In this document: in pieces, positions 17,180 through 64,000 of the stretch | Layout of the letters: each line of letters opens with the position of its first letter | Numbering within the stretch: position 1 is the stretch's first letter | DNA from: Candidatus Bathyarchaeia archaeon | GTDB lineage: Archaea > Thermoproteota > Bathyarchaeia > Bathyarchaeales > Bathycorpusculaceae | Assembly (NCBI GenBank): GCA_050010755.1 | Contig: JBEKKK010000001.1 | Location: forward strand, 672,001 to 736,000 | Length of the DNA stretch: 64,000 nucleotides | Direction: 5' to 3' | The notes under the pieces: model-generated | What the model saw: only the letters and a program-made list of their open reading frames with translations | What the model was told of the DNA's origin: nothing | Databases searched by the model: none | Translations under genes and position numbers: made by a program

Positions 17180-17286
17180 TACTTCTCCTTTTATCTTCCT
17201 CCTAGAGCGGGGGTAAGAGAGGTATCATGATATATTCTTTGCTATTCTCCTATCACCCTAAATGCATCTGTCAAACCGCAGGAAGG

Positions 17287-36532: not shown

Positions 36533-36537
36533 GCGGG

Positions 36538-45309: not shown

Positions 45310-45393
45310 CTGAACTGTTTTTATTATCCATTTTATTATTCTAGTGATGTTTATAGTTGTCGAAACGGAATTCGGCCTTTGCTGGTGACAGGT

Positions 45394-48234: not shown

Positions 48235-48466
48235 TCTGGTCGAACAGTTGCAGTTAAGCATTCCCCACGTTAGAGCAAATCTGTCACTTGTTTCTGAACC
48301 ACCTACACTTTTTTAGGCATTAGCCCAGATTTACCAAGGCAGGCAAGTCGGGGCAGTGATTTTGAAAGTTCCGTTTTGGTGTGAGTGTATGCATACAAGA
48401 AGGACGAGAATGAGGGCAATTTTGATCTTTGCTGCGTGCAATCAGTGATCGAGAAGATCAAATCTA

Positions 48467-50434
48467 TTAGCCGTAGATTGAAACTCGGCAAAGACCTTTC
48501 TTTTCCAAGTCTTCTGCAATATCGGTAATCCCTAACTCTGTCAATTTCTCTTTTGTAGGTATTCCCCTGTCCAATTCCCAACCTCTTTCGTCGTAATACT
48601 CATCAAGAATCTCATGGACGTCGTTCCGGTTGAGAACCTTTTTGCCATAGTAATCTTTCATTTTGACCAACCCGTCAGGCGTCTTTCTCGGCTTAAGCCA
48701 TATTTCGGGAATCACGTCGTTTTTTCTTTCAAATCCTTCTCTGACATTCAAAACTTTAAGCAAGTTATGAACAAGCTCACCTGCTTTCTTGAGTTCTCTA
48801 GCATTAGTTTGAATCCCGGTTGCTGCTGAGTAGGCTTCGGCAAGAATGTCTATGCTCAAGATTCCTAGTACTGCATAGATCGTGCATATGCCTAAGGAAT
48901 TATAAACTGCGTAGGCATCCTCTGCATGTCTGGCGAGTCTGCCAGCGCTGAATCCCAGAGGATTTGACGGATTAAAAATCCTTTTCAAGGCGTCAGTATC
49001 TACACCCATCTTCTTGCAGTCTTTCCGAATCACATCTATTGATTGTAAAGGATTAATGCTCGCTGAATGAGCAGATGCACTGTGTGCCCCGCGAGGATGG
49101 ACAATTTGAGTGAGGGATATTGCATCAAATGATCTGAATCGTGCATCGTATATCGAGTCTGCACCCTTGACTTCTCCGCGACCTTGCAGGTATTCAGTGC
49201 TTGAGTCTATGCCAAGTGTCTCAGAAGTCGTTTTCCATCCATCTGCCAAAATATCTCCGAATCCCTCCTTATGGCTTATCATATCCGCCAATAGAACGTA
49301 AGTGTTCAAGTTTCTCTTCAGTTCTAGGCCACCAGTTTGTTCTCTGTTAATCTTGCCTTGTTCAAAGACTCTAGTTACAAAATCTACTAAACCAGAGAAT
49401 GTCATGCAGCATAGGCCGTATCTATTCAGTATATCCATTAATTCAATTGCATTTCTGTAATCAGCAATTTCCAATCTATTGCCCATCGCAGCTATCACAT
49501 CGAAGTGTCCTGTTTGCGTGCCATGTCCCTTGAATTTCCCACTTTTTATTTCAAATGAAGCTGCACAAGGCAGCATGCAAGCTGTACAAGCTAATATCTT
49601 TGTTTTTACTTTTGCAAAATTTTGGAACCCATAAAATTTATCATATGTCTCTTTATCCCAATTTCCTTCATTCATGGTCTCTATGTAAGTTTCCCATCCT
49701 GCCATCGTACCTAGGTCTTTCATTTTCTCGAAGGAAGGATGATTCAGGATTTGTCTGCGTATGCGGCCCACTACATTCATGAATTTTTGCTTTTCTCGTA
49801 TGTTTACACGTCCAGTGCCTCTGACAACGATTGCTTTGAGTCTTTTGGAGCCCATCACTGCTCCAAGCCCGCCTCTGCCTAAATGGTAGTTTTTGTCGAC
49901 TAGGCACAGCGAAAAACTCACTAAATTCTCGCCAGCGGCACCAATTGCTATTATTCCATTCTTGCCTTCATTGGTCAACTCATCGGAAACTTCATAGCTG
50001 TCTTTTCTTCCCCACAAATGTTCGGCATCGCAAATGCTGATTCGATCATCTATAATCTCCAAATACACTGGATTCTCCGATTTTCCAGTTATTATTAACT
50101 GATCGTAGCCTGCACTTTTGAGCATGAAACCAAATCTTCTGCTACCACTTACAGCTCCTGCAATCGTCCCCGTGAGAGGGAATTTTGTTGTTGCCACTAC
50201 CTTTGCAGCAGATGGGAACATTGTTCCTACAAGGGGACCGGCGCTGATAATTATAGGGTTGATTGCTGATAGAGGAGTTTCTTCGGCTTTTATCAGGGAG
50301 TAAGCTACTCTCAGGTCCAGCCCCCAACCTCCAATAAATTTTTTCGCCAAAGACAAGTCGAGGGATTTCATATCGATCTGTTTGGTTGCAAGATCCACGA
50401 AAACCGTGGTGCCAGCAAATCCGTGACATACCAT
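48467..50434 (-). CDS. Aldehyde:ferredoxin oxidoreductase family protein (divergent)
   Basis: KFPLTG, IGAAGEN, GRGGLGAVMGSKRLKA, CTACMLPC and LDEYYDERGW motifs. Confidence 0.9.
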   Translation of the reverse strand: MVCHGFAGTTVFVDLATKQIDMKSLDLSLAKKFIGGWGLDLRVAYSLIKAEETPLSAINPIIISAGPLVGTMFPSAAKVVATTKFPLTGTIAGAVSGSRRFGFMLKSAGYDQLIITGKSENPVYLEIIDDRISICDAEHLWGRKDSYEVSDELTNEGKNGIIAIGAAGENLVSFSLCLVDKNYHLGRGGLGAVMGSKRLKAIVVRGTGRVNIREKQKFMNVVGRIRRQILNHPSFEKMKDLGTMAGWETYIETMNEGNWDKETYDKFYGFQNFAKVKTKILACTACMLPCAASFEIKSGKFKGHGTQTGHFDVIAAMGNRLEIADYRNAIELMDILNRYGLCCMTFSGLVDFVTRVFEQGKINREQTGGLELKRNLNTYVLLADMISHKEGFGDILADGWKTTSETLGIDSSTEYLQGRGEVKGADSIYDARFRSFDAISLTQIVHPRGAHSASAHSASINPLQSIDVIRKDCKKMGVDTDALKRIFNPSNPLGFSAGRLARHAEDAYAVYNSLGICTIYAVLGILSIDILAEAYSAATGIQTNARELKKAGELVHNLLKVLNVREGFERKNDVIPEIWLKPRKTPDGLVKMKDYYGKKVLNRNDVHEILDEYYDERGWELDRGIPTKEKLTELGITDIAEDLEKKGLCRVSIYG

Positions 50435-50435
50435 C

Positions 50436-50660
50436 CTAGATCCAACTCACTGTTCTCAGCGCTTCAAAAGGACAATACTCAACGCAGAGTTTGCTTTCTT
50501 TGATGCATAGTTCTAAAAATACGATTTTCTCTTTGCTAACCGATATTCTTGATTTTGAGACGTTGAAACTCCCATTGTGTGCAAATGAGCAGATCAATTG
50601 GCAGCTCAAACACTCCCTACACTTCTTAGGAGACATGATTATGTTTGTCTTCTCATTCAT
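50436..50660 (-). CDS. Small 4Fe-4S ferredoxin-like subunit
   Basis: CRECLSCQLIC...C...CVEYCPFEAL, directly upstream of the AOR gene. Confidence 0.8.
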   Translation of the reverse strand: MNEKTNIIMSPKKCRECLSCQLICSFAHNGSFNVSKSRISVSKEKIVFLELCIKESKLCVEYCPFEALRTVSWI

Positions 50661-51083
50661 CCATAATAAAACCGCCGATCTTAATTATTAAACCTTGTCT
50701 GCCCAATCCTGTTGAGCTAGCATTTATTCTGATTAAGTCATCTGGCTTAAGAGCCTACAATAATCGTCTTTGTCGAAAACAACGTTAGAAACAATACGTA
50801 CTCCAAATTCATAATGGATAAATCAAATGTCCAAGTCTTTTTGACTATCAACGGGAGTCTTCAAGCAAAACCTGAATATGCAAGTTACCCATGGTAGAGA
50901 CGCAGAACATGGTATCTCCCCAAAGATGTGAAAATAGGCAGAAAATCTGATGTCACAGTTTGCCGATGTGCATGAGAGTCGTCCAAGCGCCAGACCTGAA
51001 AATCTGTCGAAAACACCTTAGAAGGGGAGTAGCTTTCACGACAACCGTTCCCATCGACCCATAGGTACAGGGGGCAAGGAAAT

Positions 51084-51551
51084 TTGGATGAAAATAACAG
51101 AATCCTGATAGTCGACGATGACGAAAGCATAAGGAAAATCTTGTCAGCGATACTGGAAGATGAAGGATATGTTGTTGAAACGGCGGAGAACGGTAGAGAA
51201 GCCATTGACAAATCTAACGAGAAAGTCTACAACCTTGCATTGATTGATGTGCGTCTTCCAGACATTGAAGGGGTGGTGCTTCTCGCGAAGCTTAGAGAAA
51301 CTATGCCCAGAATGCGAAAAATAATCATAACAGGATTTCCAACTGTCCAGAACGCCATAGAGGCCGTGAACAACAAGGCAGATGCTTACATGTTTAAGCC
51401 TTTTGAGGTTGTAAAGATTCTGGAAACGATCAAAGAGCAGCTTAAGAAACAGCTCGAAGAGAAGGAGTACAGCCAAAATAAAATTACAGAATTCATTGAA
51501 ACAAGAGTTAGAGAACTGGAGATGGAAAACGCTCCAAAAACATCTCGATAA
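51084..51551 (+). CDS. Response regulator receiver protein
   Basis: ILIVDDD, phospho-Asp in LIDVRLPD, IITG and KPF motifs. Confidence 0.92.
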   Translation: MDENNRILIVDDDESIRKILSAILEDEGYVVETAENGREAIDKSNEKVYNLALIDVRLPDIEGVVLLAKLRETMPRMRKIIITGFPTVQNAIEAVNNKADAYMFKPFEVVKILETIKEQLKKQLEEKEYSQNKITEFIETRVRELEMENAPKTSR

Positions 51552-51805
51552 AGTGTCCCTCCAACCAACCATCCATCCGACTGTACGGCAGACAGCCAAC
51601 CTCCATCTTTTGCACCATCCAAACGTTTTAATCGTTTGAATATTTGCAAGCGCCTCGTCAAAACCATGATTGCCATCCCCCTCCCGTCAGGGATAGGTGA
51701 ACAAAGATTTCCTGGCTTGCAAGAAACTGCTTCCGCTCCCCTTACACCCTACAATGCGGAATTAAATACTATCGAGTATTATGTTCTGGCGATCCATTAC
51801 AAGTC

Positions 51806-51818
51806 AAAAGATATTTAT
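51806..51818 (+). promoter_or_regulatory. Putative BRE/TATA promoter of tRNA-Glu
   Basis: AAAAGATATTTAT about 25-35 bp upstream of the tRNA 5' end. Confidence 0.5.
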
Positions 51819-51843
51819 CGTCAGGAGAAAACCATCTTTCGAT

Positions 51844-51958
51844 GCTCCGGTAGTATAGTCCGGTCAAACTTCGTTGAAGGACTAAGTATAGCGGCCTCTC
51901 GACCCCGAAAATTGGGAGACAGTCGCGGACCCGGGTCCAAATCCCGGCCGGAGCACCA
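51844..51958 (+). tRNA. tRNA-Glu(CTC) with two introns (51868-51885 at 21/22; 51902-51920 at 37/38) and encoded CCA
   Basis: Acceptor stem GCTCCGG/CCGGAGC, D stem GTAT/GTAT, anticodon arm GCGGC-CTCTCGA-GTCGC and T arm CCGGG-TCCAAAT-CCCGG after removing two BHB-like inserts. Confidence 0.9.
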
Positions 51959-51959
51959 A
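51941..51959 (+). repeat. att direct repeat, left copy (ATCCCGGCCGGAGCACCAA)
   Basis: Identical to 61050-61068. Confidence 0.92.
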
Positions 51960-52267
51960 TTTACCGGTAAATTTCATATGGATTCAAACGCCAATCTCCT
52001 TGGTGTGTTTTGGTTGGACAAGTACCGTTCGATTGGTCTTGGATCTTAGACCTGTCATTTTTCTGTAGGTTTATTGCATTCATGATCTGACCCAAGCATC
52101 TGAATTCTTGTATAAACCATTTTGCGGTTGTGTTTTCTTCGAAAATTCGGTGTATTCAATCTCTCGTCAGATTAGCGTGCGCTCTTGAAAAACATAGTTC
52201 CATCGCTTCTGGTAGTGTCTTTAATACTAGTTCAAGCCTCAGTGAGGATATAAGTGGAGGGGTTGGC

Positions 52268-55200
52268 TTGGGTAATCTTGCTGAGGAATTTGATAAAAGT
52301 TGGCAGGAGGAATCGAGAAGACATGCGGCGACCACAATCCGTAACGAAGTTGACGACTGGTGCGAATCCTACAGGTCCACAGCAGAGAAAAGGTGGCTTT
52401 ATGAATTACTACAGAATGCGATAGACACTGCAACGGAAAACATGATTCCCAGCTTGGACATAAAGGTTGAATTCAAAGGTGGAAACCTTTCGGTTAAGCA
52501 TAACGGAGGAGGTTTTCTTCTCAAAGAAGTCATTGCTCTTGTATCTGGTGGGACATCAAAGTACTTTGGCAGAGAAACTCTTGGAAGGTTCGGCAAAGGG
52601 TTTCTCGTAACTCATATTTTGTCCAAAGAAGTTGAAGTTGAGAGTTCGATAACTCATTTGGGAACCAAAAGGCCTTTTCAAATCAAACTAGATAGAAGAG
52701 GGGACGAAAAACTCATCGAGCAAAACATCAATGATTGCAAAGACCAGCTAGATGTTGTTGTAAATCGAGTCGAGCCTGTTAACCTCGACGAAACGACCTT
52801 TACTTACATAAACGCAGCAGTGGAGGAAGCCAACAATTGCAAGGTTCTCTGTCGTCCGTTGCCTTACGTTATGATTTTTAATCCCATAATTGAGAATATC
52901 GACGTAGATTTTGAGCTTGAAGATGGGCGCTTCAACGTTTTTTGGAAAAAAAGGAATCAGAACAATTTTGATTATAACGGGCAACAATTCGAAAAAATTG
53001 GCATATCGACCGCCACCGGCGAACTTACCTGCATTAAGATAAAAAGCACTAAATTGGAACTCGCAGTGCTATTGGCAACTTCAGGGGCTTCACCTGAAGT
53101 TATGGACACTAGATGCTTCCCTAGTTTTTACTGTAACCTTCCACTGTGTGATTCGGATTCAGCTAGCCTTTCTTTTGCGATTAACAGTTCGAGCTTCGGA
53201 ATTGACACAAACCGCTCTTTCATCAATGTCTCCGCTGAAAACTCCGAAATTCTCGAGGAGCTTCCAACATTGCTAAATTCTTTATTAGATTATCTTGTTA
53301 GTGCAGGGGCACTGAACTTGCACCTGCTAGGACATGTTGACTTTTCAAGACTTTCGGAAGAAAGAAAAACCTACTTACTGAAACAGTTTTTCTATCTTAC
53401 AGAGCAACTAAGTTCTAAACCGATCCTTCGTTGCAAAAATGAAAACATCGCTCCCAACTCATCACAGATACCTTCAGGTGATTATCTAGGCCAAAACCTT
53501 CCTAAATTGACACCTTTGATATATGGTCTTCTAACCCAGTGTCACGCAAATGTGCCTGAGCTGTACGAAGAATGGGAAACAATATCTAAAGAATGGGCAT
53601 TTCTAGGAGTCAATCTACAGATTCGCACCCTAGAAAATCTGTTGGAAAGTCTGCAAGCGGACATTAATCTTGTTCAACCAGGATCGGTGAAAGCGTATGT
53701 GATTTCATTAATAGAGGCTCTTTATTCGGGTCAACAAATCACAAAAAGCATTCCTCAAGAAATCTCACAGAGGAAAATATTGCTAAATCAAAAACTGCAG
53801 CTTGTTGCTCCTCAAGACGCTAACATCGACTTGCAAGTAGATGAGAAATTAAAGGAAATAGCCTCTGGAGTGGGATGGGATATAAAAGGGCAGCTTCTGG
53901 ATGGTGAGATTCTCAAAACTCTGTCACTGAAAGATTTTATCAGTAATACACTCTGCTCAGGCAGAGAAACCTTCACAAACGATCTTGTCTTGCGAAAACT
54001 GTGGGATTCCTATGTTTCTACCAGATGGAAAGAAAGTCAGAAACAAGTGACATACAAAGATGCTTTGATGGGTCTGATAATTTGGCTAACGAAAAACAAA
54101 AGCTCAGATGAAATAAGAAGTTTCGTGAATCCTGACCTGCTGCCCATTCTTTGCAGCGATGGCATCTTTAGATGCAACGAAGAAATGTCGCGATATCCTT
54201 TTTTGTGGTCTGTGGAACAGCTGGAAGATGAACTGCGGCAGTTTGTTAACCTGATCGGTTCAAGATGGATCATGGCAAACGAATACGTGACTTTGTTGCC
54301 GCCGGATGAGCGTACCAAGTTTTTTGAAGCGCTGTCGTCAATCAGCGTTTCTTTTGAAACTCCAATTTTTCAATGGTCCGATAAGCAACTTAATGAAAAG
54401 GAAGCAGACGCTCTAGCCAGCTCGACAACTTTTCCAACTGGAGCCAAGGTTGATGCGTGGGACCTTATAGGCTTGCAAGACATGACTTCCGCAGTCGCTG
54501 GAGGAAGGGATGCAGATCTCGCTTCAAAGGTCTTGGCATTTGTTCTTACCTACGTTATCAATCACGATGACTCATGGCTTAGTCCAACCTTAATCGGCGA
54601 TAAGGCAATCTACAGCTGTTATTGGCTAGCTGTTTTGAAAACGAAGGATTGGGTTCCGTCAATAGATGGAAAACATTTGGAATCTCTTAACAGAGAGAGT
54701 TGGGAACGGGTCCTCAACATCCCTGATCTGGAGCTTAACGGTAACATTGTGAGTTTCTTAGGAAAGCATTTTGGCATTAATTTGCCAGGGATTCTCGCTC
54801 TAAAATTGAAGGTCATGAATCCGCTCGATTATCGAACTATGATTATAGACAAGTTAATCACTCTTTCATCGGATGATGCATCAAAGATCGCAGCAGAAGT
54901 AGAGAAACGCCTAAATGATATTGAAAATGTCCGAAACAATCAAAAACTTGGTCGGATTGTGGAAGAAATAAGCAAACGTATTTTTGAGAAACGAGGATTC
55001 AAAACGAAATGGACAGGAATAGGTTCTGACTTTAGATTAGTCGAGCCTGATGATATTGGTTCATTGAAATTGCAGTCCTCGGAGAATAGCCAAGATTCCG
55101 GAGTACTGATAGAAGTAAAGGCAACTGCTAGAGAAATTACCCGCATGACAATGGTGCAAGCGAAAAAAGCAATTCAAACCGGAACAAGATACATTTTGTG

Positions 55201-55525
55201 CGTATTGGACGTAAGCGGAATTACAATCCCAGATGTTAAGGGCGAAGAACAAGACCCCAAAACAGTAGAGTTGGTTGCGAAGTCATTGAAATTCGTCACG
55301 GACGTCGGAAGCAAGATCGACGAAGCTGTCAAGAAAGCTGACGGCTTTCAAGATCATCAGGGAGAGTTGAAAGACGTGGAAATTCCTCCAGGCATTAAGA
55401 TACGTTTTGAGGAGACCGATATTAGGCTTGGCGTAATGAAAAAAATATGGGGCGAAGGATATTCATTGGAAGAGATTGTGCCCTATTGCGAAAGCATTGT
55501 CAGTACCAGATCGACAGGTACATAG
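52268..55525 (+). CDS. GHKL (sacsin/NOV-like) ATPase fused to a C-terminal DUF3883-type PD-(D/E)XK nuclease
   Basis: YELLQNAID, HNGGGF, GTSK and GRFGKGF at the N-terminus. GRIVEE...GSDF...IEVKAT...MT..Q...RYILCV at the C-terminus. TTG 52268 follows GGAGG. Confidence 0.82.
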   Translation: MGNLAEEFDKSWQEESRRHAATTIRNEVDDWCESYRSTAEKRWLYELLQNAIDTATENMIPSLDIKVEFKGGNLSVKHNGGGFLLKEVIALVSGGTSKYFGRETLGRFGKGFLVTHILSKEVEVESSITHLGTKRPFQIKLDRRGDEKLIEQNINDCKDQLDVVVNRVEPVNLDETTFTYINAAVEEANNCKVLCRPLPYVMIFNPIIENIDVDFELEDGRFNVFWKKRNQNNFDYNGQQFEKIGISTATGELTCIKIKSTKLELAVLLATSGASPEVMDTRCFPSFYCNLPLCDSDSASLSFAINSSSFGIDTNRSFINVSAENSEILEELPTLLNSLLDYLVSAGALNLHLLGHVDFSRLSEERKTYLLKQFFYLTEQLSSKPILRCKNENIAPNSSQIPSGDYLGQNLPKLTPLIYGLLTQCHANVPELYEEWETISKEWAFLGVNLQIRTLENLLESLQADINLVQPGSVKAYVISLIEALYSGQQITKSIPQEISQRKILLNQKLQLVAPQDANIDLQVDEKLKEIASGVGWDIKGQLLDGEILKTLSLKDFISNTLCSGRETFTNDLVLRKLWDSYVSTRWKESQKQVTYKDALMGLIIWLTKNKSSDEIRSFVNPDLLPILCSDGIFRCNEEMSRYPFLWSVEQLEDELRQFVNLIGSRWIMANEYVTLLPPDERTKFFEALSSISVSFETPIFQWSDKQLNEKEADALASSTTFPTGAKVDAWDLIGLQDMTSAVAGGRDADLASKVLAFVLTYVINHDDSWLSPTLIGDKAIYSCYWLAVLKTKDWVPSIDGKHLESLNRESWERVLNIPDLELNGNIVSFLGKHFGINLPGILALKLKVMNPLDYRTMIIDKLITLSSDDASKIAAEVEKRLNDIENVRNNQKLGRIVEEISKRIFEKRGFKTKWTGIGSDFRLVEPDDIGSLKLQSSENSQDSGVLIEVKATAREITRMTMVQAKKAIQTGTRYILCVLDVSGITIPDVKGEEQDPKTVELVAKSLKFVTDVGSKIDEAVKKADGFQDHQGELKDVEIPPGIKIRFEETDIRLGVMKKIWGEGYSLEEIVPYCESIVSTRSTGT

Positions 55526-55678
55526 CCAAGTCTGCAGCGGTCCGCGCGCGCTGAAAAGGGCGGATTGCCTCGGCTGTTTCCCAGTTCAGAGACACTTTCA
55601 CCTTATCCAAAATCGAAGAGCGAGGGGAACTAGTAGCCGTGTACAACCTTTCCAGAGCCTGGGAACGCATGAAACTTG

Positions 55679-57028
55679 CTAATTCTTGGGCAATAGGTCT
55701 TTTAGGATTTGTATTTTTGAGTTTGCCAATCTATCAACGATCAGTTCTATGTTTTTGTCATCATCTATTGCCTTCCTCACATAGCCTAGCCATTCGTTCA
55801 TGAACAAAGCAACATGACCCCGCCGCAATATGTACCATTGATCTGGCTTTAGTTCCTCAAGTTTTTTTACAGTCACACTTCTACAGAAGTCGCAATTGTG
55901 AGGCAATGCTCCAATATTTTCGTATATTTCCTTCATGACATCCCAAGGCCTATGTATTAACATGGTCGGATGAAGCCATTTGCCATAAGGCGCATACTTG
56001 CCAAAACTGTGTTCAATATCATAGTTTGTGAAAGAACTGGAAACAATGTCGAAACCAGCGAGAGGAGAGACAAAGCTTTGGCAATTATTTTCAAGAACAA
56101 CACATGCTCTATTTTTGAACGTTTTCGAGAAAAATTCTAGATTCGCCATAAAATCTCGATAATTGTCTCTCTCAGTTTGAAGTTCCTTATTGGTTAGGTC
56201 TAGATATTTGAATTTGAGCACTACTAAGGATTCCTTCGCATTTTCGGCGATGTACCTAAGAGCCTTGTCGAGCAATGACCAGCTAGCTAAGGCACTGCTT
56301 TTGAACAGAAAATAGGTAGCACAATGTTTCTTTCCTCTGGCCAGTTCTTTCGCGTTATCATTCATCTTTTGGGCTATCTCCAGCATTTCCTCTGAATCTA
56401 CCAGAGGAGTTGGAGGCAGAACAGCATCTGCATCATAATCTAAGTCACATTGTAGGAACGCTCGGATTATGTCAAGTCTATTTTGATTTGACTGGCTATT
56501 TTCCTCAGCAAGTCCTCGCCAAAATTCTCGATGATGTCTGTCGCGTTTGGATTCAAAGGATTTGTAAGCCTTCTTCTTCTCCCCTTTGTATCCAGACTCT
56601 TTTTGTAGTTTTTCAATTTCTTTGATGTAGTCAAGAATTACTTTTGGAGTGTATTGATTTTTCTTGAAGCCGTCCATTCTCGGTAGATAATAGAGGTATT
56701 CGAGACTAGGGTCGATAAGAAGAAGCTGTTGTTCGAAGAAGAGGCTATACTTGTCCTTGCGTACGTTCATCAATACATCCTTTGGTGTCTTCGGATGCAA
56801 TCTCCATAGAGCTTGACGCAAATCGACGAATCTTACTGTAGATGTTGTTAGTCTGTCGCTGACATGTTGCTCTCTCAAATTGATTAGAAAGTCTAGTTCA
56901 TCTGAATCTTGCAATTGTACACAGAAATTGGGCGTAGATACAATCTTTTGTCCAATTTTCGTTCTGGTTGTTCGGGCATAGCGATCACGACTCTCTGGTT
57001 TGACTTCTATTTTTAACTCGCTATCCAT
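55679..57028 (-). CDS. Divergent tRNA-guanine transglycosylase (TGT)-fold protein
   Basis: N-terminal YARTTRTKIGQKIVSTPNF resembles TGT ARTG...TP.FMPV. AGFDIVSS resembles GVDMFDC. C-terminal HNCDFC...RRGH...VRKAI resembles the TGT Zn site and final helix. Confidence 0.6.
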   Translation of the reverse strand: MDSELKIEVKPESRDRYARTTRTKIGQKIVSTPNFCVQLQDSDELDFLINLREQHVSDRLTTSTVRFVDLRQALWRLHPKTPKDVLMNVRKDKYSLFFEQQLLLIDPSLEYLYYLPRMDGFKKNQYTPKVILDYIKEIEKLQKESGYKGEKKKAYKSFESKRDRHHREFWRGLAEENSQSNQNRLDIIRAFLQCDLDYDADAVLPPTPLVDSEEMLEIAQKMNDNAKELARGKKHCATYFLFKSSALASWSLLDKALRYIAENAKESLVVLKFKYLDLTNKELQTERDNYRDFMANLEFFSKTFKNRACVVLENNCQSFVSPLAGFDIVSSSFTNYDIEHSFGKYAPYGKWLHPTMLIHRPWDVMKEIYENIGALPHNCDFCRSVTVKKLEELKPDQWYILRRGHVALFMNEWLGYVRKAIDDDKNIELIVDRLANSKIQILKDLLPKN

Positions 57029-57486
57029 TCGGAATCCTCCTTTTTCTCTACGAATTTATGTAAAGCGCTGAGAAAATTCCCCAAGTCTTTCATGTTTATC
57101 ATTACCCCTCCTTTGATGTGCGGGACTCGGCACTCATCTAATTCTTTCTCCTGTAAGTAGATGAATTTGCCTTCGTTGTTCTCCAACTTGTAGAAGGTAT
57201 AGGTTTTGTCAGTGTAGACAATGCTTTGAACGTCGGTTTCGTGAACAATCTTGCCGTTTTTGTAGTAGATGAACAGATTGCCTCGCTGGATTTTGTAGGC
57301 TTCTCCTATAGCGACCAGGACATCAAGATGTTTGCTAATGGTCATTCTATTGAAGTTAGTAGCAGAGGCAATTTGAGTAACTGTAATGCCTCCTTTGTCG
57401 TTTAGTCTGAGTATTTCAAGAATTACGTTGCGGGTATAGAAGTCTCTTTCTTGTGGAGACAAAACATGGATTTCTTCAGGAGACAA
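57013..57486 (-). CDS. Winged-helix DNA-binding protein with C-terminal PUR/Whirly-like domain
   Basis: ILEIL...GITVTQIASATNFNRMTISKHLDVLVAIG is a wHTH. KTYTFYKLENNEGKFIYLQE...VMINMKDLGNFLSAL has a PUR-repeat-like pattern. Overlaps the next gene by 16 bp. Confidence 0.7.
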   Translation of the reverse strand: MSPEEIHVLSPQERDFYTRNVILEILRLNDKGGITVTQIASATNFNRMTISKHLDVLVAIGEAYKIQRGNLFIYYKNGKIVHETDVQSIVYTDKTYTFYKLENNEGKFIYLQEKELDECRVPHIKGGVMINMKDLGNFLSALHKFVEKKEDSEWIAS

Positions 57487-57554
57487 TACTGTTCTCGGAA
57501 CGATTATGCGACTTCTTATCTCAAATTCCCTCCCTAGGTTCTGTTCAGCATTCT

Positions 57555-57586
57555 TGCTAAGCGAATATGCTAAGCATATCTGCTAA
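57555..57586. promoter_or_regulatory. Putative operator: TGCTAA x3 at 13-bp period including the palindrome ATATGC-TAA-GCATAT
   Basis: TGCTAA at 57555, 57568 and 57581. Inverted repeat at 57565-57579. A minus-strand TTAAATA lies at 57591-57597. Confidence 0.55.
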
Positions 57587-57713
57587 TCAATATTTAACAC
57601 TTTTGCTTAGAACCCATATATCGTCGAGGCGGCAGCACCCGCTACAGTATTTGTTTGCTGTAATATTCATATAAGACGCCATGTTAGAGGTAGAACAATG
57701 AGGATCACCGTTA

Positions 57714-59588
57714 ATGTCCATACCTTTTGAGGAACTTGATCCGAAGCAAAAACAAATCGTCCGACGCGCAACTAGTCCGCTTCTTGTTCTTGCTGGGCCG
57801 GGAACTGGTAAGACAGAAGTGTTGACACATCGAATTGCCTATCTTAATGCTCAAATGGGTGTCCCGCCAAATCGAATACTAGCCGTCACCTTCAGTAGGA
57901 AAGCCGCAAGTGAAATGCTTGATCGCCTGAGAAAATTTCCAGGACTTGAAACAACAGAGTTTCATGTCTTAACCCTTCATGCAGAGTCGCTGAAACTACT
58001 GAACGAGATTGGAAAACGTCGCAAGTTTCTTGTTGCAGATGATGAGGCACGGCTACTAATTAAAGACGCTGCTGAGGATCTGAATCTTGGACTAGACTGG
58101 AGAAACTTAAGCTCATTAGAAAAAAAAGTGAAACTAGCAAAAGCAAACAACCTCCTTCCTGGAGATATTCGAGATCAACCCTTGCAGCGTTTCTACCGAC
58201 GATACGAAGAACTCCTTGACTTTAACAACGCGATAGATCTTGATGGACTGGTTGTGAAAGTCACGAGAGCCTTGCTCTCAGAATCGCCTTCTGATGTTTT
58301 TGAAGGTCATCTCCTAGTCGATGAGTATCAAGACATAAACCAAGCCGAATACAAACTAATCCATATCTTGGCTAGGGAGGCCGAAAGTCTTTTCGTAGTG
58401 GGTGATGACGATCAGAGCATTTATGGTTGGCGTGGCGCGGATCCTAGCATAATCCGCAATTTTGAAGGAGCCTTCCAAAATGGACGCATCGAAATTCTTG
58501 AGCAGTCGCATCGATGCCCGGGGCACATACTTGCAGGTGCTTATGCGATAGTATCAAGAGATCCTGATTGCATAAAAAAGACTGTTCGTTCTTCGAAAGG
58601 TGATGGCAATCCTATTAATGTCCTGCTCTCAAAGAGCTGGAGTGTTGAGGCTATCTGGATAGCAAATTGGATAAAAGAATGTGTTTCCAAGGGTTCCGTT
58701 AAGCCCAGTGACATCGCAGTACTGACAAAAACACCAAGTTTAGCCGAGTTACTTGTGGACCAGCTCAGAATTGCAGAAATTGATACGGTGTACTGGAAGT
58801 CAGGAGGATTTTTTTCTGATAGGAATATCTTAGACATACTTGCATATATACGCCTAGTTGTCGACAAAGATGATAACTTGGCTTTGCGGAGATGTTTGAT
58901 GACCACAACATCAGGCATCGGAAACGTAGCCGACACAAGATTGCGCTTGCTGGCAGAAAGGAATGAATGCAGTCTATGGGAAGTCGTCGTTGATTACATG
59001 AAGTTTGTAGAACTTCGCAGGTGGCGCGGTTCATTGGGAAAATTCGTGGCAAGGTTCACGCAGATGGAAGAACGGTTCTCCGAACTTAGGGTGTATCAAA
59101 TTGTCCAATCTATCGCAAAAGAAATAGGTACGGACCGATCAGCTAACATAAAGAAGTTGCAAGACTTTGCCAAGGCATTGCCGGAAGACTTCGAATTAGA
59201 AGATTTTCTTGCAGAGATTAACAAAAACAGAGGCGTAGACCTTACTGGCGGGAGTCCAGAACCAGAGACGAACGCAGATGCTGTAGCTATAATGAGCATG
59301 CATTCTTCCAAGGGACTTGGATACAAAATTATCTTCATTCTTGGAATGGATGAGGAACTATTACCGGATATGAATCAAAATGAATGTGAGCAAAGGAGAC
59401 TATGCTACGTCGCAATGACAAGGGCAAAGGACGAACTTTTCTTATGCCATGCCAAAATGCGGAAAGGGCCTGCAGCAAAGGGGCTTAGCTTCTACAAACC
59501 ATCAAGATTCATTAGCAACATACCAAAGAGCCACATGAAAATCATTAACAATGAATACTTCAGACAAGGATCAGCTGGTGCAACATAA
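57714..59588 (+). CDS. UvrD/PcrA-like superfamily 1 DNA helicase
   Basis: LAGPGTGKT, VTFSRKAA, VDEYQD, VGDDDQSIYGWRGA, MHSSKGL and RRLCYVAMTRAK motifs. Confidence 0.95.
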   Translation: MSIPFEELDPKQKQIVRRATSPLLVLAGPGTGKTEVLTHRIAYLNAQMGVPPNRILAVTFSRKAASEMLDRLRKFPGLETTEFHVLTLHAESLKLLNEIGKRRKFLVADDEARLLIKDAAEDLNLGLDWRNLSSLEKKVKLAKANNLLPGDIRDQPLQRFYRRYEELLDFNNAIDLDGLVVKVTRALLSESPSDVFEGHLLVDEYQDINQAEYKLIHILAREAESLFVVGDDDQSIYGWRGADPSIIRNFEGAFQNGRIEILEQSHRCPGHILAGAYAIVSRDPDCIKKTVRSSKGDGNPINVLLSKSWSVEAIWIANWIKECVSKGSVKPSDIAVLTKTPSLAELLVDQLRIAEIDTVYWKSGGFFSDRNILDILAYIRLVVDKDDNLALRRCLMTTTSGIGNVADTRLRLLAERNECSLWEVVVDYMKFVELRRWRGSLGKFVARFTQMEERFSELRVYQIVQSIAKEIGTDRSANIKKLQDFAKALPEDFELEDFLAEINKNRGVDLTGGSPEPETNADAVAIMSMHSSKGLGYKIIFILGMDEELLPDMNQNECEQRRLCYVAMTRAKDELFLCHAKMRKGPAAKGLSFYKPSRFISNIPKSHMKIINNEYFRQGSAGAT

Positions 59589-59589
59589 C

Positions 59590-59746
59590 TAGCTCCAGCT
59601 TGTTTTTTACTACTAGTTTTTGTTCCTTCGTATATCTCCACAATATCTCCTACTTTCCAGTTCAAAACACTGATAACCTCTGGAGGTATTGCTATCGCCG
59701 CTGATCCGCGGCGCGCCTACGAAATAAGCCTACGTATGAATAGCAA
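59590..59746 (-). pseudogene. Degenerate AbrB/MazE-type gene
   Basis: Minus strand reads FIRRLIS*ARRGSAAIAIPPEVISVLNWKVGDIVEIY, then after a frameshift KEQKLVVK. Confidence 0.6.
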
Positions 59747-59825
59747 AAGCTACTACAGACGTTTGAAGCAAGTCATTATGACTCTTCTCCAGGGCGAAGC
59801 CCTAGCAGGGATTGAATTAGAAGAA

Positions 59826-60812
59826 TCAACAGCTAAAATATGGATGCCCATTTATCAATCTAAACGTAAGAACCTTAATTCCCAATTCTGCAAGTACTCC
59901 TCTGAAGTTTTTGCCTAGAACATCCGGAAATACTGCCACGAGCTGAGGGTTAATGCCTAACCTGATTGAGTTGAAGAAGAGTTGTCCTATTGCTGCGTAG
60001 CAACTCTGACGCTCTGTATCAGTCTTAACCTCGTATAACGTTTTTACCTCGTTCTTTTCACCAAGAATGTATAGGTCCATCCCATATCTGTTACCAACCT
60101 TCGATCCCTCAGAGATGAGCTTTTCTTCTAGACCCTTAACGATAATGCCATGATTGCATTTGGCTTCTATTTCACTATTGGAGCTGTAACGTTTTATTCC
60201 TGTAAATTCTTCTCTGAAAGCATCGAACGTTCGATCGGGTATGTGTAAATCAGACTTTTGATGTAAAGGTGCAATATATTTGATTCGTGCAACTTCATGC
60301 ACAAAGACACTCATTTGTTGCGGGAATTCTTTGCTCCCAAGCGACGCGACAAGTGCTAGCCTAGCTATATTATTGCCCTCTCGAACAGATACCCATTCGC
60401 CAATGAAATTATTAACGAAAAGCGACTTTCCAATGCCTTTTCTTCCGCCACCGATTATTCCTCTGTGCAATAGAAATAGTCCCTCCATTTCGTCCCCTAC
60501 TACGGCACCAGAAATCCTTCGGTTAAGGTTCTTAGGCAAATTGACCTCAACGACAATGCTATGAGGATACTTTTTGCCCCATTGAGGCTCTTGGAGACCA
60601 AAGGAGTTCCAGAACCTATCTTCTTCGTCCTTTGCTGTCCACCAAAAACCAAGATCTCTATTCCAGTAAGTCTCTCGAAACTGATGCCAACCTTTGCCAC
60701 CAATCATAATTCTACCATGCTTATCCAGAATAGACTTCAGTCTCTTTTCGAGTTGATCTTGAGCCTTTCTAACATCCGTCTCCTTTTCGATTATTCTTAG
60801 CATTTTTCCCAC
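59826..60812 (-). CDS. Hypothetical protein with C-terminal PD-(D/E)XK nuclease domain
   Basis: H..IV..L...MDLYI...LYEVKTD.....Y.AIGQL.F is a restriction-endonuclease-like motif. The N-terminal domain is unrecognised. Confidence 0.7.
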   Translation of the reverse strand: MGKMLRIIEKETDVRKAQDQLEKRLKSILDKHGRIMIGGKGWHQFRETYWNRDLGFWWTAKDEEDRFWNSFGLQEPQWGKKYPHSIVVEVNLPKNLNRRISGAVVGDEMEGLFLLHRGIIGGGRKGIGKSLFVNNFIGEWVSVREGNNIARLALVASLGSKEFPQQMSVFVHEVARIKYIAPLHQKSDLHIPDRTFDAFREEFTGIKRYSSNSEIEAKCNHGIIVKGLEEKLISEGSKVGNRYGMDLYILGEKNEVKTLYEVKTDTERQSCYAAIGQLFFNSIRLGINPQLVAVFPDVLGKNFRGVLAELGIKVLTFRLINGHPYFSC

Positions 60813-61049
60813 AATGTCTACGGAACGGCGTAGTAAATAAAAGCTTGAGGTAAGGCTATGCCAACCGCAAGGCAGTTTTACAAAAACGACGCATTCTTGA
60901 AAGACATGAAAAACCTTTTGATTTAGCCATAATTATTACATAATTCGCTCTTATGATGACCGCGGAACCCATAACCGATATAATAAAGAGAATTCAAACC
61001 CTCGCCAAGCAATGCGCAAGTATATTTTTACTGGCAAGAGCGTATTCCG

Positions 61050-61068
61050 ATCCCGGCCGGAGCACCAA
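61050..61068 (+). repeat. att direct repeat, right copy (tRNA-Glu 3' end duplication)
   Basis: ATCCCGGCCGGAGCACCAA, identical to 51941-51959. Confidence 0.92.
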
Positions 61069-61319
61069 ACTTTTAGTGCTGTTCTCCGCAATAATCGTTT
61101 TTTCTTGTATGGCGCCCCATCAGGTACCGACATAGCTCTGCTTTATAGAATCAAGCCACGGCAGAAAATGCTCCCGGTCAATAGTTTCTATTGGTCGGCG
61201 GTCTGGTGTCTAGAGCTTGTATGTTATTGTTGCCACCTTTGCGTGCGCAGAAAAGATGATAGTAGGTGAAAAAACTTGGAGAATAGATACTGCAAGACCA
61301 AGCTAGTTCAGCGGTTTAG

Positions 61320-61892
61320 TCAAGACTTTGGCGTTGCCAGTATCATGTAATGGTAGACGCCTTCTTTCTTTATCTCATTTATTTTGAAGCCTGCTGACTC
61401 TATAAGGCCAGAAGCTTTCTTTTCGTCGAATCGTATTTGTAAAGGTGGACCCAACCGCATGGGTTCCTTTTTCCAGTCCAGGTCTACAAGTCGGCCTGTC
61501 GGCTTCAGCATTTTCCTGGCGTTTGACAACACTTTGCTTGGATCCTCGAAGTCGTGAAGGACTATTCCAAAGAAAACAACGTCTGCGCATGAATCACAGA
61601 GTACGGTCTCTTCAGCCATTCCCGCTGCAAGCTTGAGGTTCCTCAATTTTTCTTTTGCAGCTTTTTCTTTCAACCTGCGTATCGCTTCAGGATCAGCGTC
61701 CAAACCGTAGACTCTTCCTTCGTCGCCCACTAGTCTCGCTGCAGGAAGCGCAAAGAATCCTTGGCCACAGCCTACGTCTACGAACGTGAGCCCTGCCCTA
61801 ACGCCCACGTCAACCAGAATGGCTTCAGGGTTTTGCCATTTTCTCCTTTCTTTTTCATCATCGAAGAACCTGCGGCCATGCAAGTCTATCAA
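61320..61892 (-). CDS. Class I SAM-dependent methyltransferase
   Basis: VDVGCGQG, VYGLD, VLHD and LKPTGRL..LDWKK motifs. Confidence 0.9.
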   Translation of the reverse strand: MIDLHGRRFFDDEKERRKWQNPEAILVDVGVRAGLTFVDVGCGQGFFALPAARLVGDEGRVYGLDADPEAIRRLKEKAAKEKLRNLKLAAGMAEETVLCDSCADVVFFGIVLHDFEDPSKVLSNARKMLKPTGRLVDLDWKKEPMRLGPPLQIRFDEKKASGLIESAGFKINEIKKEGVYHYMILATPKS

Positions 61893-62065
61893 CCTCGAAT
61901 GCTATCTAAGTCCAACACGATAATAGATTCATGCGCACTTGCTTTCAAGCTTTTCAATGGATGTGGTCAAATCCACGCACGCTGAGGAACGAATTATACG
62001 CAAAAGAAATAGACCAGAAGCTAGAAAAGGTATTCGATCTTAATAACTGGTGAGAGGTGTACTGT

Positions 62066-63052
62066 TTGGTTTCTCTCAGAGCTTTGGCACCGTCGTTAAC
62101 AAGAATAACTGTTGCCGGGGCTGTTGGAGCAGCGATGCATATCGGCCAAGGTGACGAACACTTGGTAGACTCAGACGCAGTCGAATTCTCGAGGGCGGTT
62201 CTGGCCCAGACAGATGTCGAGGGTGAGGTAATTGCCTGCGAGGGACCAAAGGACAACGCTCCAGCATTCATACGTAGAGAGAAAGTTGGAACCGGCAAAG
62301 GCCCGAAAGTCGAGTTTGTTGTCGATCCTGTTGATGGCACAACTGCCGCTTCCAAAGGGAGAAAGGACGCAATCTCTGCGCTTGCCTGCGCGCCAGCTGG
62401 CTGCTTTCAAGTTCTTCCGGACGATGGATACTACTTCAAAGTGGCCACTGACCGCCACGCGCTTGGAAAGATTTCCCTAGAAATGTCGATTGAAGAAATC
62501 GTGCGCACAGTCGCTCGGGAAAAGGGCTTGCCTGTTGAAAACTTCACGGTAATCATGCTGGAGCGTGAAAGGCACATAGAAATTCTAAATCGTCTAAGAA
62601 AGCTAGGCGTACGAATAATCCTCATAACCGACGGCGACATCGCGGGAGCAGTCGTCACGTGTCGACCGGGGTCAGGCATAGATCTCCTCTTAGGTGCTGG
62701 TGCGGGACCCGAGGCGACCATTGCAGCCACTGCCATTAAAATTCTGGGCGGCACTATGCTCGTGAAGGCTTGGAAGGATAAGAAAGACGACGCGAAAAGG
62801 ATGGACAGATTGAAGGCCGAAGGAGTTGACGCAGACAAAACTTATTGCCAAGACGAGTTGGCCAAAGGCAACGAACTTGTCTTTGCTGCATCTGGCGTGA
62901 CTAAAGGCGAACTGTTGGACGGCGTTCGGTTCATCCCAGAGGGGGCCATCGTTAACTCTCTTTGCATGAGATTGCCTAGCGGAACCGTGGAAAAGTCAGA
63001 AACAACCTTACGGTTTAAGGGGCATCCCGTGTACAAGCGGTTCATGCCCTAG
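62066..63052 (+). CDS. glpX: Fructose-1,6-bisphosphatase class II (GlpX family)
   Basis: EGPKDNAP, VDPVDGT, RERH, ITDGDIAG, PEA and FAASGVT.G.LLDGV motifs. Confidence 0.85.
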   Translation: MVSLRALAPSLTRITVAGAVGAAMHIGQGDEHLVDSDAVEFSRAVLAQTDVEGEVIACEGPKDNAPAFIRREKVGTGKGPKVEFVVDPVDGTTAASKGRKDAISALACAPAGCFQVLPDDGYYFKVATDRHALGKISLEMSIEEIVRTVAREKGLPVENFTVIMLERERHIEILNRLRKLGVRIILITDGDIAGAVVTCRPGSGIDLLLGAGAGPEATIAATAIKILGGTMLVKAWKDKKDDAKRMDRLKAEGVDADKTYCQDELAKGNELVFAASGVTKGELLDGVRFIPEGAIVNSLCMRLPSGTVEKSETTLRFKGHPVYKRFMP

Positions 63053-63109
63053 AATGCATTAAGGCGTTCATGTGGCACGGCACGAATCATCCTCAAATGG
63101 AGCAATGGC

Positions 63110-63259
63110 ATGGAAGAAAAAACAACGATTCTGCCATGTGGCTGCAAGTATCAGGACAACGGATACATGGTGGTGCGAGTCCATGAATGTGCTTACCATA
63201 AACGGAAGAGGACGACCAAGCGGCCGTATCGACCGAAAGCCGAATGCGTTAGACCCTGA
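63110..63259 (+). CDS. Putative 49-aa Zn-binding small protein
   Basis: GGAG then ATG 63110: MEEKTTILPCGCKYQDNGYMVVRVHECAYHKRKRTTKRPYRPKAECVRP*, with a CxC...CxxH motif and basic tail. Confidence 0.5.
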   Translation: MEEKTTILPCGCKYQDNGYMVVRVHECAYHKRKRTTKRPYRPKAECVRP

Positions 63260-63464
63260 GACTACACGATTAGACTTTCAACAGAATCTGGCAAACATGG
63301 AGCGAGTATAACAATGGATTGCATGATTCCCGATGCTAGAGGCAAGCAAGTGAATACTCAACGTGAAAATAGGTTCTCACGAAGAAAGAGGCAAGCAGGA
63401 AGAGGGCGCCGTTGCCCAAGTTTTATTCAAAACAATTCTCGATGTGGTCTCAGGTGGATTTCGC

Positions 63465-64000
63465 TTGTTTGACATAGTGTCCGTCGGTGATTTTTGCATA
63501 GATTCAATTTTCCTGCCCAATCGACAAACTGGATTCACTGTTCTGGGCGGCTCGGTGGCGTATGCCTCTTTTGCTGCAAGACGTTTGGATGCGAGGGTTT
63601 CGGTCATTTCAACTGTAGGTGCAGATTTCCCCGCCGCTTACAAATGGTGGCTCGAACAAGAGGGCGTAGATTTGTCTGGAGTTACCGACATGAAGGATGC
63701 GCTTACTACCCGTTTTGAGCTGAGATACAACAGTGACCTTTCAGACCGTACCCTCTGCTCAAAGAACAGGATGCCTCCTATTCGTATCGAAGACTTGCCT
63801 AACCCTCTGAAAGCCAGAGTAATACATCTTGCACCAATCGCAGGCGAAGTCACATATGAAGTGGCCGAGAAACTGAAAAACTACACAGAAATCATGTCCC
63901 TTGACCCGCAAGGACTCGTACGAAATTTCGACGAGAACGGAAACGTCACACTCAAAGAGCCTGAGGACAGACGCATCTTGGGCCTCGTTGACATCTTCAA
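63465..64000 (+). CDS. PfkB-family kinase, N-terminal part (runs off window end)
   Basis: From TTG 63465: MFDIVSVGDFCIDSI...LGGSVAYASFAARRL...STVGADF...SLDPQG. Confidence 0.85.
   Translation, partial: MFDIVSVGDFCIDSIFLPNRQTGFTVLGGSVAYASFAARRLDARVSVISTVGADFPAAYKWWLEQEGVDLSGVTDMKDALTTRFELRYNSDLSDRTLCSKNRMPPIRIEDLPNPLKARVIHLAPIAGEVTYEVAEKLKNYTEIMSLDPQGLVRNFDENGNVTLKEPEDRRILGLVDIF

Follow-up and report, generated by a model that had tools for sequence, protein, structure and literature searches.

Tiamat, the product of TmtA, is a single-protein anti-phage system (Millman et al. 2022, cited in bioRxiv 10.64898/2026.09.30.755639). In recent preprints the Bacillus cereus protein is reported to hydrolyse ATP, to nick double-stranded DNA weakly and to cleave single-stranded DNA (bioRxiv 10.64898/2026.09.30.754977), and its antiviral protection to require the ATPase glutamate (E44A; bioRxiv preprints including 10.64898/2026.09.30.755639). 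Tiamat-helicase neighbourhoods are already described: according to 10.64898/2026.09.30.754977, the conserved neighbour met most often is a helicase (of superfamily 1 (SF1), UvrD, Upf1 or RecB, or of superfamily 2), present beside about 14% of curated prokaryotic Tiamats. The same preprint found no more than 21 Tiamats in archaea, notes that the PD-(D/E)xK domain of some Tiamat-like proteins ('Type I-A') is too divergent for InterProScan, and ascribes to Type I-G proteins an extension of 83-100 amino acids past the nuclease that is predicted to recruit a NERD-helicase. A second relevant family is that of the tRNA-guanine transglycosylases (TGTs), in which, as in DpdA, three aspartates (for acid/base catalysis, base recognition and nucleophilic attack) and a structural zinc site are invariant; N-terminal beta-strands are present in TGTs and absent from DpdA, according to PMC10164549. 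Cap10 of type IV CBASS also has the TGT fold but is described, in bioRxiv 10.1101/2025.04.06.647259, as acting in protein deazaguanylation, with the zinc site lost and the nucleic-acid surface remodelled. Here we compare with these systems a 9.1-kb segment, bounded by a 19-nt direct repeat, within a 64-kb stretch of DNA (positions 672,001 to 736,000 of contig JBEKKK010000001.1, assembly GCA_050010755.1; the whole of this stretch is called the window below). The segment, or island, holds five intact genes, encoding a Tiamat-type ATPase-nuclease, a TGT-superfamily protein, a winged helix-turn-helix (wHTH) protein, a UvrD-type helicase and a PD-(D/E)XK protein (Table 1).

We favour, with a probability of roughly 0.6, the reading that the island is an integrase-less mosaic of independent defence-type modules at a tRNA-Glu(CUC) gene with two introns, and not one five-gene machine. 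Tiamat and its helicase neighbourhoods are known; the pair formed by the wHTH and TGT-superfamily genes is the new element. An earlier reading of this DNA, made from the letters and their translations (the sequence-only reading), had taken the gene combination for one unnamed defence system. It proposed PADLOC as a check on novelty, naming a match to a described system as the outcome that would speak against it, and such a match was found: the ATPase-nuclease is Tiamat (TmtA model PDLC03967, E=5.5e-92), and the five genes do not co-occur as a set. The impression that the cargo looks like defence genes held up.

Table 1. Features of the island and of its tRNA target; coordinates count from the first nucleotide of the window.
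Feature	Coordinates	Strand	Basis
tRNA-Glu(CUC) gene, two introns, integration target	51844..51958	+	in-silico intron removal and ARAGORN; precursor fold
attL	51941..51959	+	19-nt core that repeats the 3' terminus of the tRNA, from the T-loop end over T-stem, 3' acceptor strand and discriminator to CCA and one further nt
Tiamat (TmtA)-type protein, 1085 aa	52268..55525	+	PADLOC TmtA, NCBIfam, invariant motifs, database entry P0153
TGT-superfamily protein, 449 aa, in no Pfam or PADLOC family	55679..57028	-	AlphaFold2, Foldseek, conservation, profile against PDB
wHTH protein, 157 aa, conserved partner/regulator of the TGT-like gene	57013..57486	-	HTH_11 and ArsR/SdpR-type matches
Operator-like repeats, GCTWAGC-type half-sites about 13 nt apart	57554..57610	.	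inverted repeats in the divergent wHTH/UvrD intergenic region
Short UvrD/PcrA-type SF1 helicase, 624 aa, without nuclease or NERD domain	57714..59588	+	Pfam, PADLOC, phmmer
Two-domain PD-(D/E)XK protein, 328 aa	59826..60812	-	invariant residues (alignment A2), AlphaFold2, Foldseek, homologue fusions
attR	61050..61068	+	19-nt core, second copy, without tRNA body

A scan with the alignment of the TGT-like protein, taking 10-kb flanks, found seven loci (L001-L007) among 185,579 species genomes: five in metagenome-assembled genomes (MAGs) of Bathyarchaeia/Thermoproteota or unclassified archaea, one in a Nitrososphaerales MAG and one in an entry labelled 'bacterium'. Ten window proteins, including those of the five island genes, were compared with these loci by tblastn. 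In L001, L003, L004 and L006 the TGT-like gene is immediately preceded by a wHTH homologue whose frame overlaps or abuts it; in L002 and L005 the contig ends inside the TGT-like gene. The Nitrososphaerales locus, L007, has a 154-amino acid open reading frame (ORF; 9008-9472) corresponding to the C-terminal zinc-subdomain part (residues 322-447), with no wHTH gene, and is either a remnant or a stand-alone domain. Tiamat, UvrD and PD-(D/E)XK genes were found within 10 kb in none of the seven, so that of the gene pairs suggested for co-occurrence searches only the wHTH gene travels with the TGT-like gene. An all-against-all comparison of the ORFs gave the same picture, the wHTH and TGT-like genes being the only ones shared besides generic ABC ATPases, and the neighbours of the TGT-like gene differ in every locus: a PLD-family nuclease in L005, a cytidine deaminase in L002, and housekeeping genes in L001. 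In L003 the TGT-like gene is spread over at least two frames (10001-11341) and is a pseudogene; beside it (11754-18687) are genes for a CHAT protease, a ResIII/SWI2-SNF2 helicase and the S and M subunits of a type I restriction-modification system, a second and different defence island.

The five island genes make up four transcription units of alternating orientation, and this together with the lack of five-gene co-occurrence leaves the reading as a single system unsupported. That reading would make Tiamat and the PD-(D/E)XK protein the effectors of one new multi-component system, with UvrD as its motor and the TGT-like protein, with its wHTH partner, marking or sensing self. It draws on the confinement of all five genes to one att-bounded segment with intergenic gaps of no more than 308 bp, on operator-like repeats of the wHTH gene that lie in a promoter region common to UvrD, on the existence of relatives at 77-86% identity for three of the genes, and on the thought that a TGT-family enzyme could supply a 'modification' arm, as DpdA is described to do in Dpd systems (PMC10164549). 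Besides the seven loci, what makes it very unlikely to us is that none of four inspected plasmid loci of the PD-(D/E)XK family has an annotated helicase or Tiamat neighbour and that, in two preprints (10.64898/2026.09.30.754977 and 10.64898/2026.09.30.755639), Tiamat protects as a single gene in bacteria. The longest contigs listed for the seven Tiamat homologues match in size none of those listed for the TGT-like and PD-(D/E)XK families, a weak and indirect comparison pointing the same way.

The limits of the island are well defined by its repeat. Both copies of ATCCCGGCCGGAGCACCAA are exact, as the sequence-only reading had stated along with its description of the enclosed ORFs, and identity between them ends at 19 nt. 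In the window the repeat is found twice at three mismatches or fewer, against 0.01 expected from shuffles, and two or more matches occurred in none of 100 shuffled sequences. The left copy consists of the last 18 nt of the tRNA-Glu gene and one further base, the hallmark left when an element integrates site-specifically at a tRNA 3' end. The earlier proposal of an att-flanked, integrase-less island at a tRNA gene is supported and acquires a named target.

That target is readily overlooked. Read by eye, the gene has perfect 7-bp acceptor ends, a T-arm and a CCA end, interrupted by an 18-nt intron in the D-arm region (51869-51886) and a 19-nt one immediately 3' of the anticodon loop (51903-51921). 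ARAGORN found no tRNA in the whole window either by default or with anticodon-loop introns allowed, and Rfam gave no match in 48000-64000 at E<=1. When both introns are removed in silico, ARAGORN calls tRNA-Glu(CTC), 78 nt long, with a score of 116.3; this was the top call in a splice search that scored 13,183 removals of segment pairs, 3,497 of which gave some tRNA call. The predicted fold of the unspliced precursor RNA, at -45.2 kcal/mol (z=-3.1), retains both the acceptor and the T arm. One of the introns thus lies outside the anticodon loop, and the T-loop reads UCCAAAU, with C at position 55, where U (as pseudouridine) is near-universal in tRNAs.

Searches of the island proteins with Pfam, NCBIfam and PADLOC gave no integrase, DNA methylase or replication gene between the repeats, as the sequence-only reading had said, and no integrase family was found among 57 window ORFs (45 further ORFs and 12 scanned earlier). 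A split integrase of the SSV type, reconstituted across the att site, was considered and is excluded, since no ORF longer than 74 amino acids spans the rejoined circle junction. A class I S-adenosylmethionine methyltransferase does lie 250 nt outside attR (61320-61892, minus strand; Methyltransf_31, E=1.1e-22; UbiE/COQ5-like), but it is of the small-molecule type and belongs to no DNA methylase family, so that the statement that no methylase is present stands. The att core was not found in L001-L007. All five island ORFs align to their homologues over 98-100% of their length. The segment would be either the immobilised remnant of an element that integrated site-specifically, or a cargo island movable in trans by a foreign integrase; integration into the 3' end of the tRNA gene would have duplicated the 19 nt, by which the tRNA is kept intact.

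A sceptic might instead take the repeat for a chance duplication, or for a tRNA fragment left by an unrelated rearrangement, with the enclosed genes ordinary chromosomal ones. An integrase is indeed missing, and the left flank, at a GC content of 0.41-0.45, resembles the island (0.40-0.44). This is nevertheless extremely unlikely, given an exact 19-mer found twice where 0.01 is expected, its precise coincidence with a tRNA 3' end, the accessory character and patchy distribution of all five enclosed genes, and a GC content that climbs to 0.47-0.52 directly past attR.

The first gene encodes Tiamat, on the evidence of its sequence profile. PADLOC model PDLC03967 aligns with 307.8 bits (residues 52-661 against profile positions 6-625 of 1063), and six more TmtA models match more weakly; so strong a match places the ATPase-nuclease in a described system. 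From N to C terminus the protein comprises a GHL/sacsin-like ATPase, the Tiamat core, a putative and divergent NOV_C/DUF3883 PD-(D/E)xK domain and an extension of about 105 amino acids. The NCBIfam sacsin ATP-binding domain matches at E=1e-12 (48.3 bits, slightly below its 50-bit cut-off), and Pfam gives sub-threshold matches to HATPase_c (E=0.034) and NOV_C (E=0.11). In an alignment (A3) of the island protein with six homologues of 40-77% identity, E92, N96, D99 and the motifs HNGGGF and GKFGKGF are invariant in all seven, as are the putative nuclease residues E945, D967, E995 and K997. These findings support the call of a GHKL ATPase joined to a probable DUF3883 domain. Residues are numbered from the GTG at 52130, where the ORF was listed to begin; the database entry for the same protein has 1085 amino acids, and the start is therefore most likely the TTG at 52268. 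Searching the PDB sequences with A3 gave nothing significant, and tblastn against plasmids gave just seven distant matches, confined to the ATPase region at 10-25% coverage.

Compared with the described Tiamats, the island protein has the ATPase with catalytic glutamate and N-box, a putative C-terminal PD-(D/E)xK domain with a D...ExK pattern, and an SF1 UvrD-type helicase within five genes. It differs in its archaeal host, archaea contributing few members to the preprint count given above, and in size, with 1085 amino acids against about 1500 for B. cereus TmtA. The extension past the nuclease, found in six of the seven subfamily sequences, is close in length to that reported for Type I-G, and the divergence of the nuclease domain recalls what is said of Type I-A (10.64898/2026.09.30.754977).

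The helicase call is sustained by Pfam (UvrD-helicase, E=1.7e-58; UvrD_C, E=2e-41). In PADLOC the protein matches GajB (E=4e-69) and RTasHel (DRT-helicase; E=4e-77), and in an exhaustive phmmer search 15 representatives of a distinct subfamily of short proteins (about 605-635 amino acids; E<=1e-98), to which it belongs, rank ahead of generic PcrA/UvrD proteins of 700-800 amino acids. Gabija was considered, since a UvrD-type helicase scoring on GajB models adjoins nuclease genes here, and is rejected: GajB models match generic UvrD helicases, the only Gabija-type matches are on the UvrD protein, and none of the five island proteins matches GajA, an OLD-family ABC ATPase/TOPRIM protein, in PADLOC at E<=1. 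The sequence-only reading had likewise set the island apart from Gabija. The UvrD gene lies two genes (2.2 kb) downstream of Tiamat, with the wHTH/TGT-like operon in between, and so differs from described helicase-associated Tiamats in that an unrelated two-gene operon separates the partners, the helicase lacks a NERD or nuclease domain, and there is no methyltransferase. UvrD would be the likeliest helper of Tiamat. A complex prediction for Tiamat residues 925-1131 (A3) with UvrD (A4) scored 0.00 in both runs, which counts neither way.

The TGT-superfamily protein is the most unusual member of the island. Its AlphaFold2 model, built on a 27-sequence alignment, is confident (predicted local distance difference test, pLDDT, 88.9; predicted template-modelling score, pTM, 0.89). 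Foldseek found 184 matches in the PDB at E<=1e-3, and all 50 of those listed are TGTs or archaeosine TGTs (arcTGTs); they include arcTGT 1iq8 (E=8.4e-9) and Zymomonas mobilis TGT (template-modelling, TM, scores of 0.55/0.66). The earlier call of a TGT fold is thereby upheld. A profile search of PDB sequences aligned the N-terminal 'DR..AR....TP' segment and the zinc motif to arcTGT at E=7.9e-6, the (C/H)xCxxC...H pattern falling on CSCPVC of arcTGT. D106, D327, C379, C382 and H405 are invariant in the 27 sequences and D201 is conserved in at least 90%; position 377 is Cys in the consensus and His in the island protein. Roles were assigned to the aspartates from their order and local motifs, not from superposition. 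Pfam gave neither TGT (PF01702) nor any other family even at E<=10, and the NCBIfam arcTGT model TIGR00432 reached only E=0.013 and 14 bits, against a cut-off of 350. The public entry for the gene (P0007) has 363 amino acids from an internal Met; homologues align over all 449 residues, and the deposited gene model is therefore probably too short.

With 40 clusters among 5.8 billion the family is rare; no cluster has a functional name, six being labelled 'hypothetical protein', and tblastn found no match in 72,556 plasmids or 50,697 phage records. The best ESM Atlas score, 0.89, is under the 0.9 level and serves as a lead only.

How the protein relates to the TGT-fold enzymes of genome conflict was considered case by case. 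Like DpdA, it folds as a TIM barrel of the TGT superfamily and has the acid/base and nucleophile aspartates together with a structural zinc site, and, like a Dpd system, it is borne on a mobile island and adjoins nuclease and helicase genes. Membership in DpdA is rejected. PADLOC, which includes DpdA models, gave no family at E<=1; hhalign of the TGT-like profile (A1) against phage 9g DpdA gave a probability of 0.1% (E=0.61), and there is no phage match by tblastn. Neither the ParB-like ATPase DpdB nor DpdC was found in the Pfam, NCBIfam or PADLOC matches of the island genes or of 30 neighbours in the related loci; the island lacks a DpdB-like ATPase, DpdC and preQ0 genes, and the partner of the TGT-like protein is a small wHTH protein. 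Cap10 offers the precedent of a TGT-family enzyme recruited into a defence context. Membership there is rejected as well, since the zinc motif, lost in Cap10, is kept, no CD-NTase, Cap9 (QueC-like) or Cap11 gene is nearby, and PADLOC gave no match.

In structure the protein is closer to the cellular enzymes. The same profile finds the zinc region of Escherichia coli Tgt by hhalign (E=0.0026), cellular structures match at E ~1e-8 and TM 0.55-0.69 against a best E=1e-3 and TM 0.32-0.47 for viral, DpdA-like folds, and the model keeps beta-strands at residues 8-39, the N-terminal trait that DpdA is described as lacking (PMC10164549). The protein differs from arcTGT and bacterial TGT in its lack of C1/C2/PUA domains, a large helical insertion at about residues 129-197, and a gene that is rare, accessory and provided with a dedicated wHTH partner. 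We take it to be a deep branch of nucleic-acid-type TGTs in which the base-exchange site is apparently intact; since it keeps the acid/base and nucleophile aspartates and the zinc subdomain, it is predicted to remove or exchange a guanine-type base.

The same comparisons lend something to the view that the wHTH/TGT-like pair is no defence module at all, but an accessory, regulated, tRNA-modifying paralogue of arcTGT riding on the island; the housekeeping neighbours in L001 would suit it too. We consider it rather unlikely. The tRNA-binding C1/C2/PUA domains of arcTGT are absent, while the host has a separate TGT_C2 and PUA gene; the family is very rare, and its genes are island-borne, decaying in two of the seven loci and attached to a DNA-binding partner. 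The host gene just mentioned (45298-45864, plus strand) encodes a stand-alone 188-amino acid protein with only TGT_C2 (E=2.2e-29) and PUA (E=3.6e-19), the tRNA-binding C-terminal part of archaeosine TGT, which suggests a split arcTGT in the host and an active archaeosine/preQ0 pathway.

The partner protein has its wHTH domain at residues 18-66 (HTH_11, E=1.9e-5; NCBIfam ArsR/SdpR-type matches), confirming this part of the earlier call; its C-terminal half, about 90 amino acids, which that reading had called PUR-like, has no Pfam or PDB sequence match. The last 16 nt of its gene are also the first 16 of the TGT-like gene. A cluster of GCTWAGC motifs lies upstream of the wHTH gene in the island, L001 and L003, but neither L004 nor L006, which are less closely related, has it. 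From 16 occurrences of the 7-mer over 194 kb, 0.019 would be expected per 230 nt. With such a cluster before its own gene, the wHTH protein would be at least an autoregulator, and the pair is probably autoregulated. In the island this region is shared with the divergent UvrD gene. In L001, L003 and L004 no convincing att-like repeats were found around the pair; ARAGORN called just a tRNA-Met, in L001, though intron-bearing tRNAs would escape it.

This layout, with a small DNA-binding gene first, a short overlap and palindromic promoter repeats, is that of a classic type II toxin-antitoxin pair, and the two genes might form a toxin-antitoxin-like or abortive-infection module in which a TGT-fold toxin depurinates or base-swaps tRNA, rRNA or DNA, with the wHTH protein as autorepressor and antitoxin. 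The extra C-terminal half of the wHTH protein would fit, as would a patchy and decaying distribution (with a frameshift in L003 and just a 3' fragment in L007) and occurrence in islands with restriction-modification or nuclease genes. No TGT-fold toxin is known, however, and a literature search likewise returned none; the full base-exchange active site equally suits a modifying enzyme, and we hold a toxin to be unlikely.

More broadly, the pair (57486-55679, minus strand) may be put forward, tentatively and with more doubt than confidence, as a new two-gene archaeal immune or addiction module acting through base exchange or excision in DNA or tRNA, with the wHTH protein controlling or neutralising its partner. 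It might, for example, install a preQ0-type 7-deazaguanine in DNA with no need of DpdB, or be a toxin that depurinates nucleic acid. No description of the pair was found in open-access PMC papers or in the main texts of bioRxiv preprints.

The last gene of the island encodes a protein with an N-terminal beta-rich domain bearing a conserved HRGxIGGGRKGIGK loop and a C-terminal PD-(D/E)XK nuclease domain. D246, E261, K263 and Q277 are invariant in 46 sequences (A2), the AlphaFold2 model has a pLDDT of 89.7, and weak Foldseek matches (E=2.4e-3 at best) fall on nuclease domains, those of NucS, Can2/Card1 and XisH, so that the earlier nuclease assignment is supported by both residues and fold. Pfam, NCBIfam and PADLOC gave no family, and a search of PDB sequences with A2 nothing significant. 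The family has 108 clusters, mostly from bacterial MAGs. Of six longer homologues scanned, P0060 carries an N-terminal MrcB_N (E=4.7e-19) and P0058 a sub-threshold EVE (E=1e-3), and in the ESM Atlas the protein lies at 0.97-0.98 beside clusters auto-named 'McrB related'. There are six plasmid matches, and in all four inspected the gene stands alone: neither a helicase nor a Tiamat-like gene is annotated beside it. One of these four, on plasmid pR24_2 of Microvirga terrae (L011, 5989-9284), is beside TIR-domain and reverse-transcriptase genes and an HTH regulator, a defence-island context in a bacterium.

In its C-terminal domain, in the fusions of its relatives, in standing alone among variable and often defence-rich neighbours, and in needing no methylase, this family resembles, on sequence grounds, a type IV (modification-dependent) restriction effector. 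It differs from those of the McrB-N/EVE/SRA reader kind in that its N-domain falls in no described reader family and there is no GTPase/AAA+ motor. The sequence-only reading had suggested that the island as a whole might target modified DNA; this remains plausible for this one gene, some of whose homologues carry McrB-N or EVE reader domains.

Several observations weigh against the reading of the island as a mosaic of defence modules. Relatives at 77-86% identity of the Tiamat, TGT-like and PD-(D/E)XK proteins all lie on short metagenome contigs, so that a related strain may carry the same island, and the whole set might have been transferred together. The wHTH/TGT-like pair is found among housekeeping genes in L001 and L004, which fits a non-defence accessory enzyme equally well. 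Composition gives no sharp island edge on the left, and the link between UvrD and Tiamat is drawn from adjacency and the preprint's general statistics. NOV_C, finally, is under the Pfam threshold (22.1 bits) in all Tiamat members scanned and matches in four of six, with E-values of 0.0094-0.028 in three of the five homologues and the poorer one given above for the island protein.

With these points in mind, the mosaic reading would have the modules work as follows. By analogy with B. cereus Tiamat, the GHL-ATPase/PD-(D/E)xK nuclease of the first would hydrolyse ATP and cut single-stranded, or nick double-stranded, DNA of invaders, and the short UvrD-type helicase, as we infer, may unwind DNA and so supply it with single strands. 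In the second, the translationally coupled wHTH and TGT-like genes would form an autoregulated operon for base removal or exchange: the wHTH protein would likely bind the GCTWAGC-type repeats in its own promoter, and the TGT-like enzyme would remove or exchange a guanine-type base in tRNA or DNA, with host preQ0 as the obvious donor. The third would be the stand-alone PD-(D/E)XK nuclease, of a family that appears to behave like a type IV restriction effector.

The surroundings of the island are those of an archaeal chromosome. Pfam matches of 45 further window ORFs include TBP, TFE-alpha, aTrm56, NAC, FTR, two methenyl-H4MPT cyclohydrolases (MCH), three aldehyde:ferredoxin oxidoreductases and DUF2193, of which the first six indicate an archaeal host, probably Bathyarchaeia-like; the TGT-like gene has most of its relatives in MAGs of Bathyarchaeia/Thermoproteota. 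The oxidoreductase paralogues lie in 32739-36601 and 48467-50434, the MCH genes at 18815-19873 and 30588-31430, and FTR at 142-1086, a gene content typical of Bathyarchaeia-like metabolism. Two oddities of the related loci may be recorded here. In L001 a 61-nt intergenic repeat occurs three times downstream of the wHTH/TGT-like pair (12611-12671, 14648-14708 and 16281-16341; 69-100% identity) and could be a small repeat element; in L004 a 1173-amino acid ORF (15227-18748, minus strand), matched by no Pfam family, is built around a repeat of about 300 nt that occurs seven times, and its product is therefore repetitive and probably a surface protein.

These findings bear on archaeal islands generally as well as on the families involved. 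Intron-bearing archaeal tRNA genes serve as integration sites, and since standard tRNA finders miss them, islands of this kind will be under-called in archaeal MAGs. Tiamat is rare in prokaryotes and still rarer in archaea, and a compact archaeal form with a UvrD neighbour, in an island with clear limits, offers natural variation that is useful for studying the action of Tiamat and of its relatives in eukaryotes (NO VEIN, sacsin). The wHTH/TGT-like pair, a rare but well-conserved family whose active site looks intact, is the part worth an experiment. If it is an immune module, the island would join to the restriction arm of an archaeal Tiamat and helicase a base-exchange arm not seen before; and if the TGT-like enzyme acts on DNA, it would, after DpdA and Cap10, be the third case in which the TGT fold was independently drawn into genome conflict.

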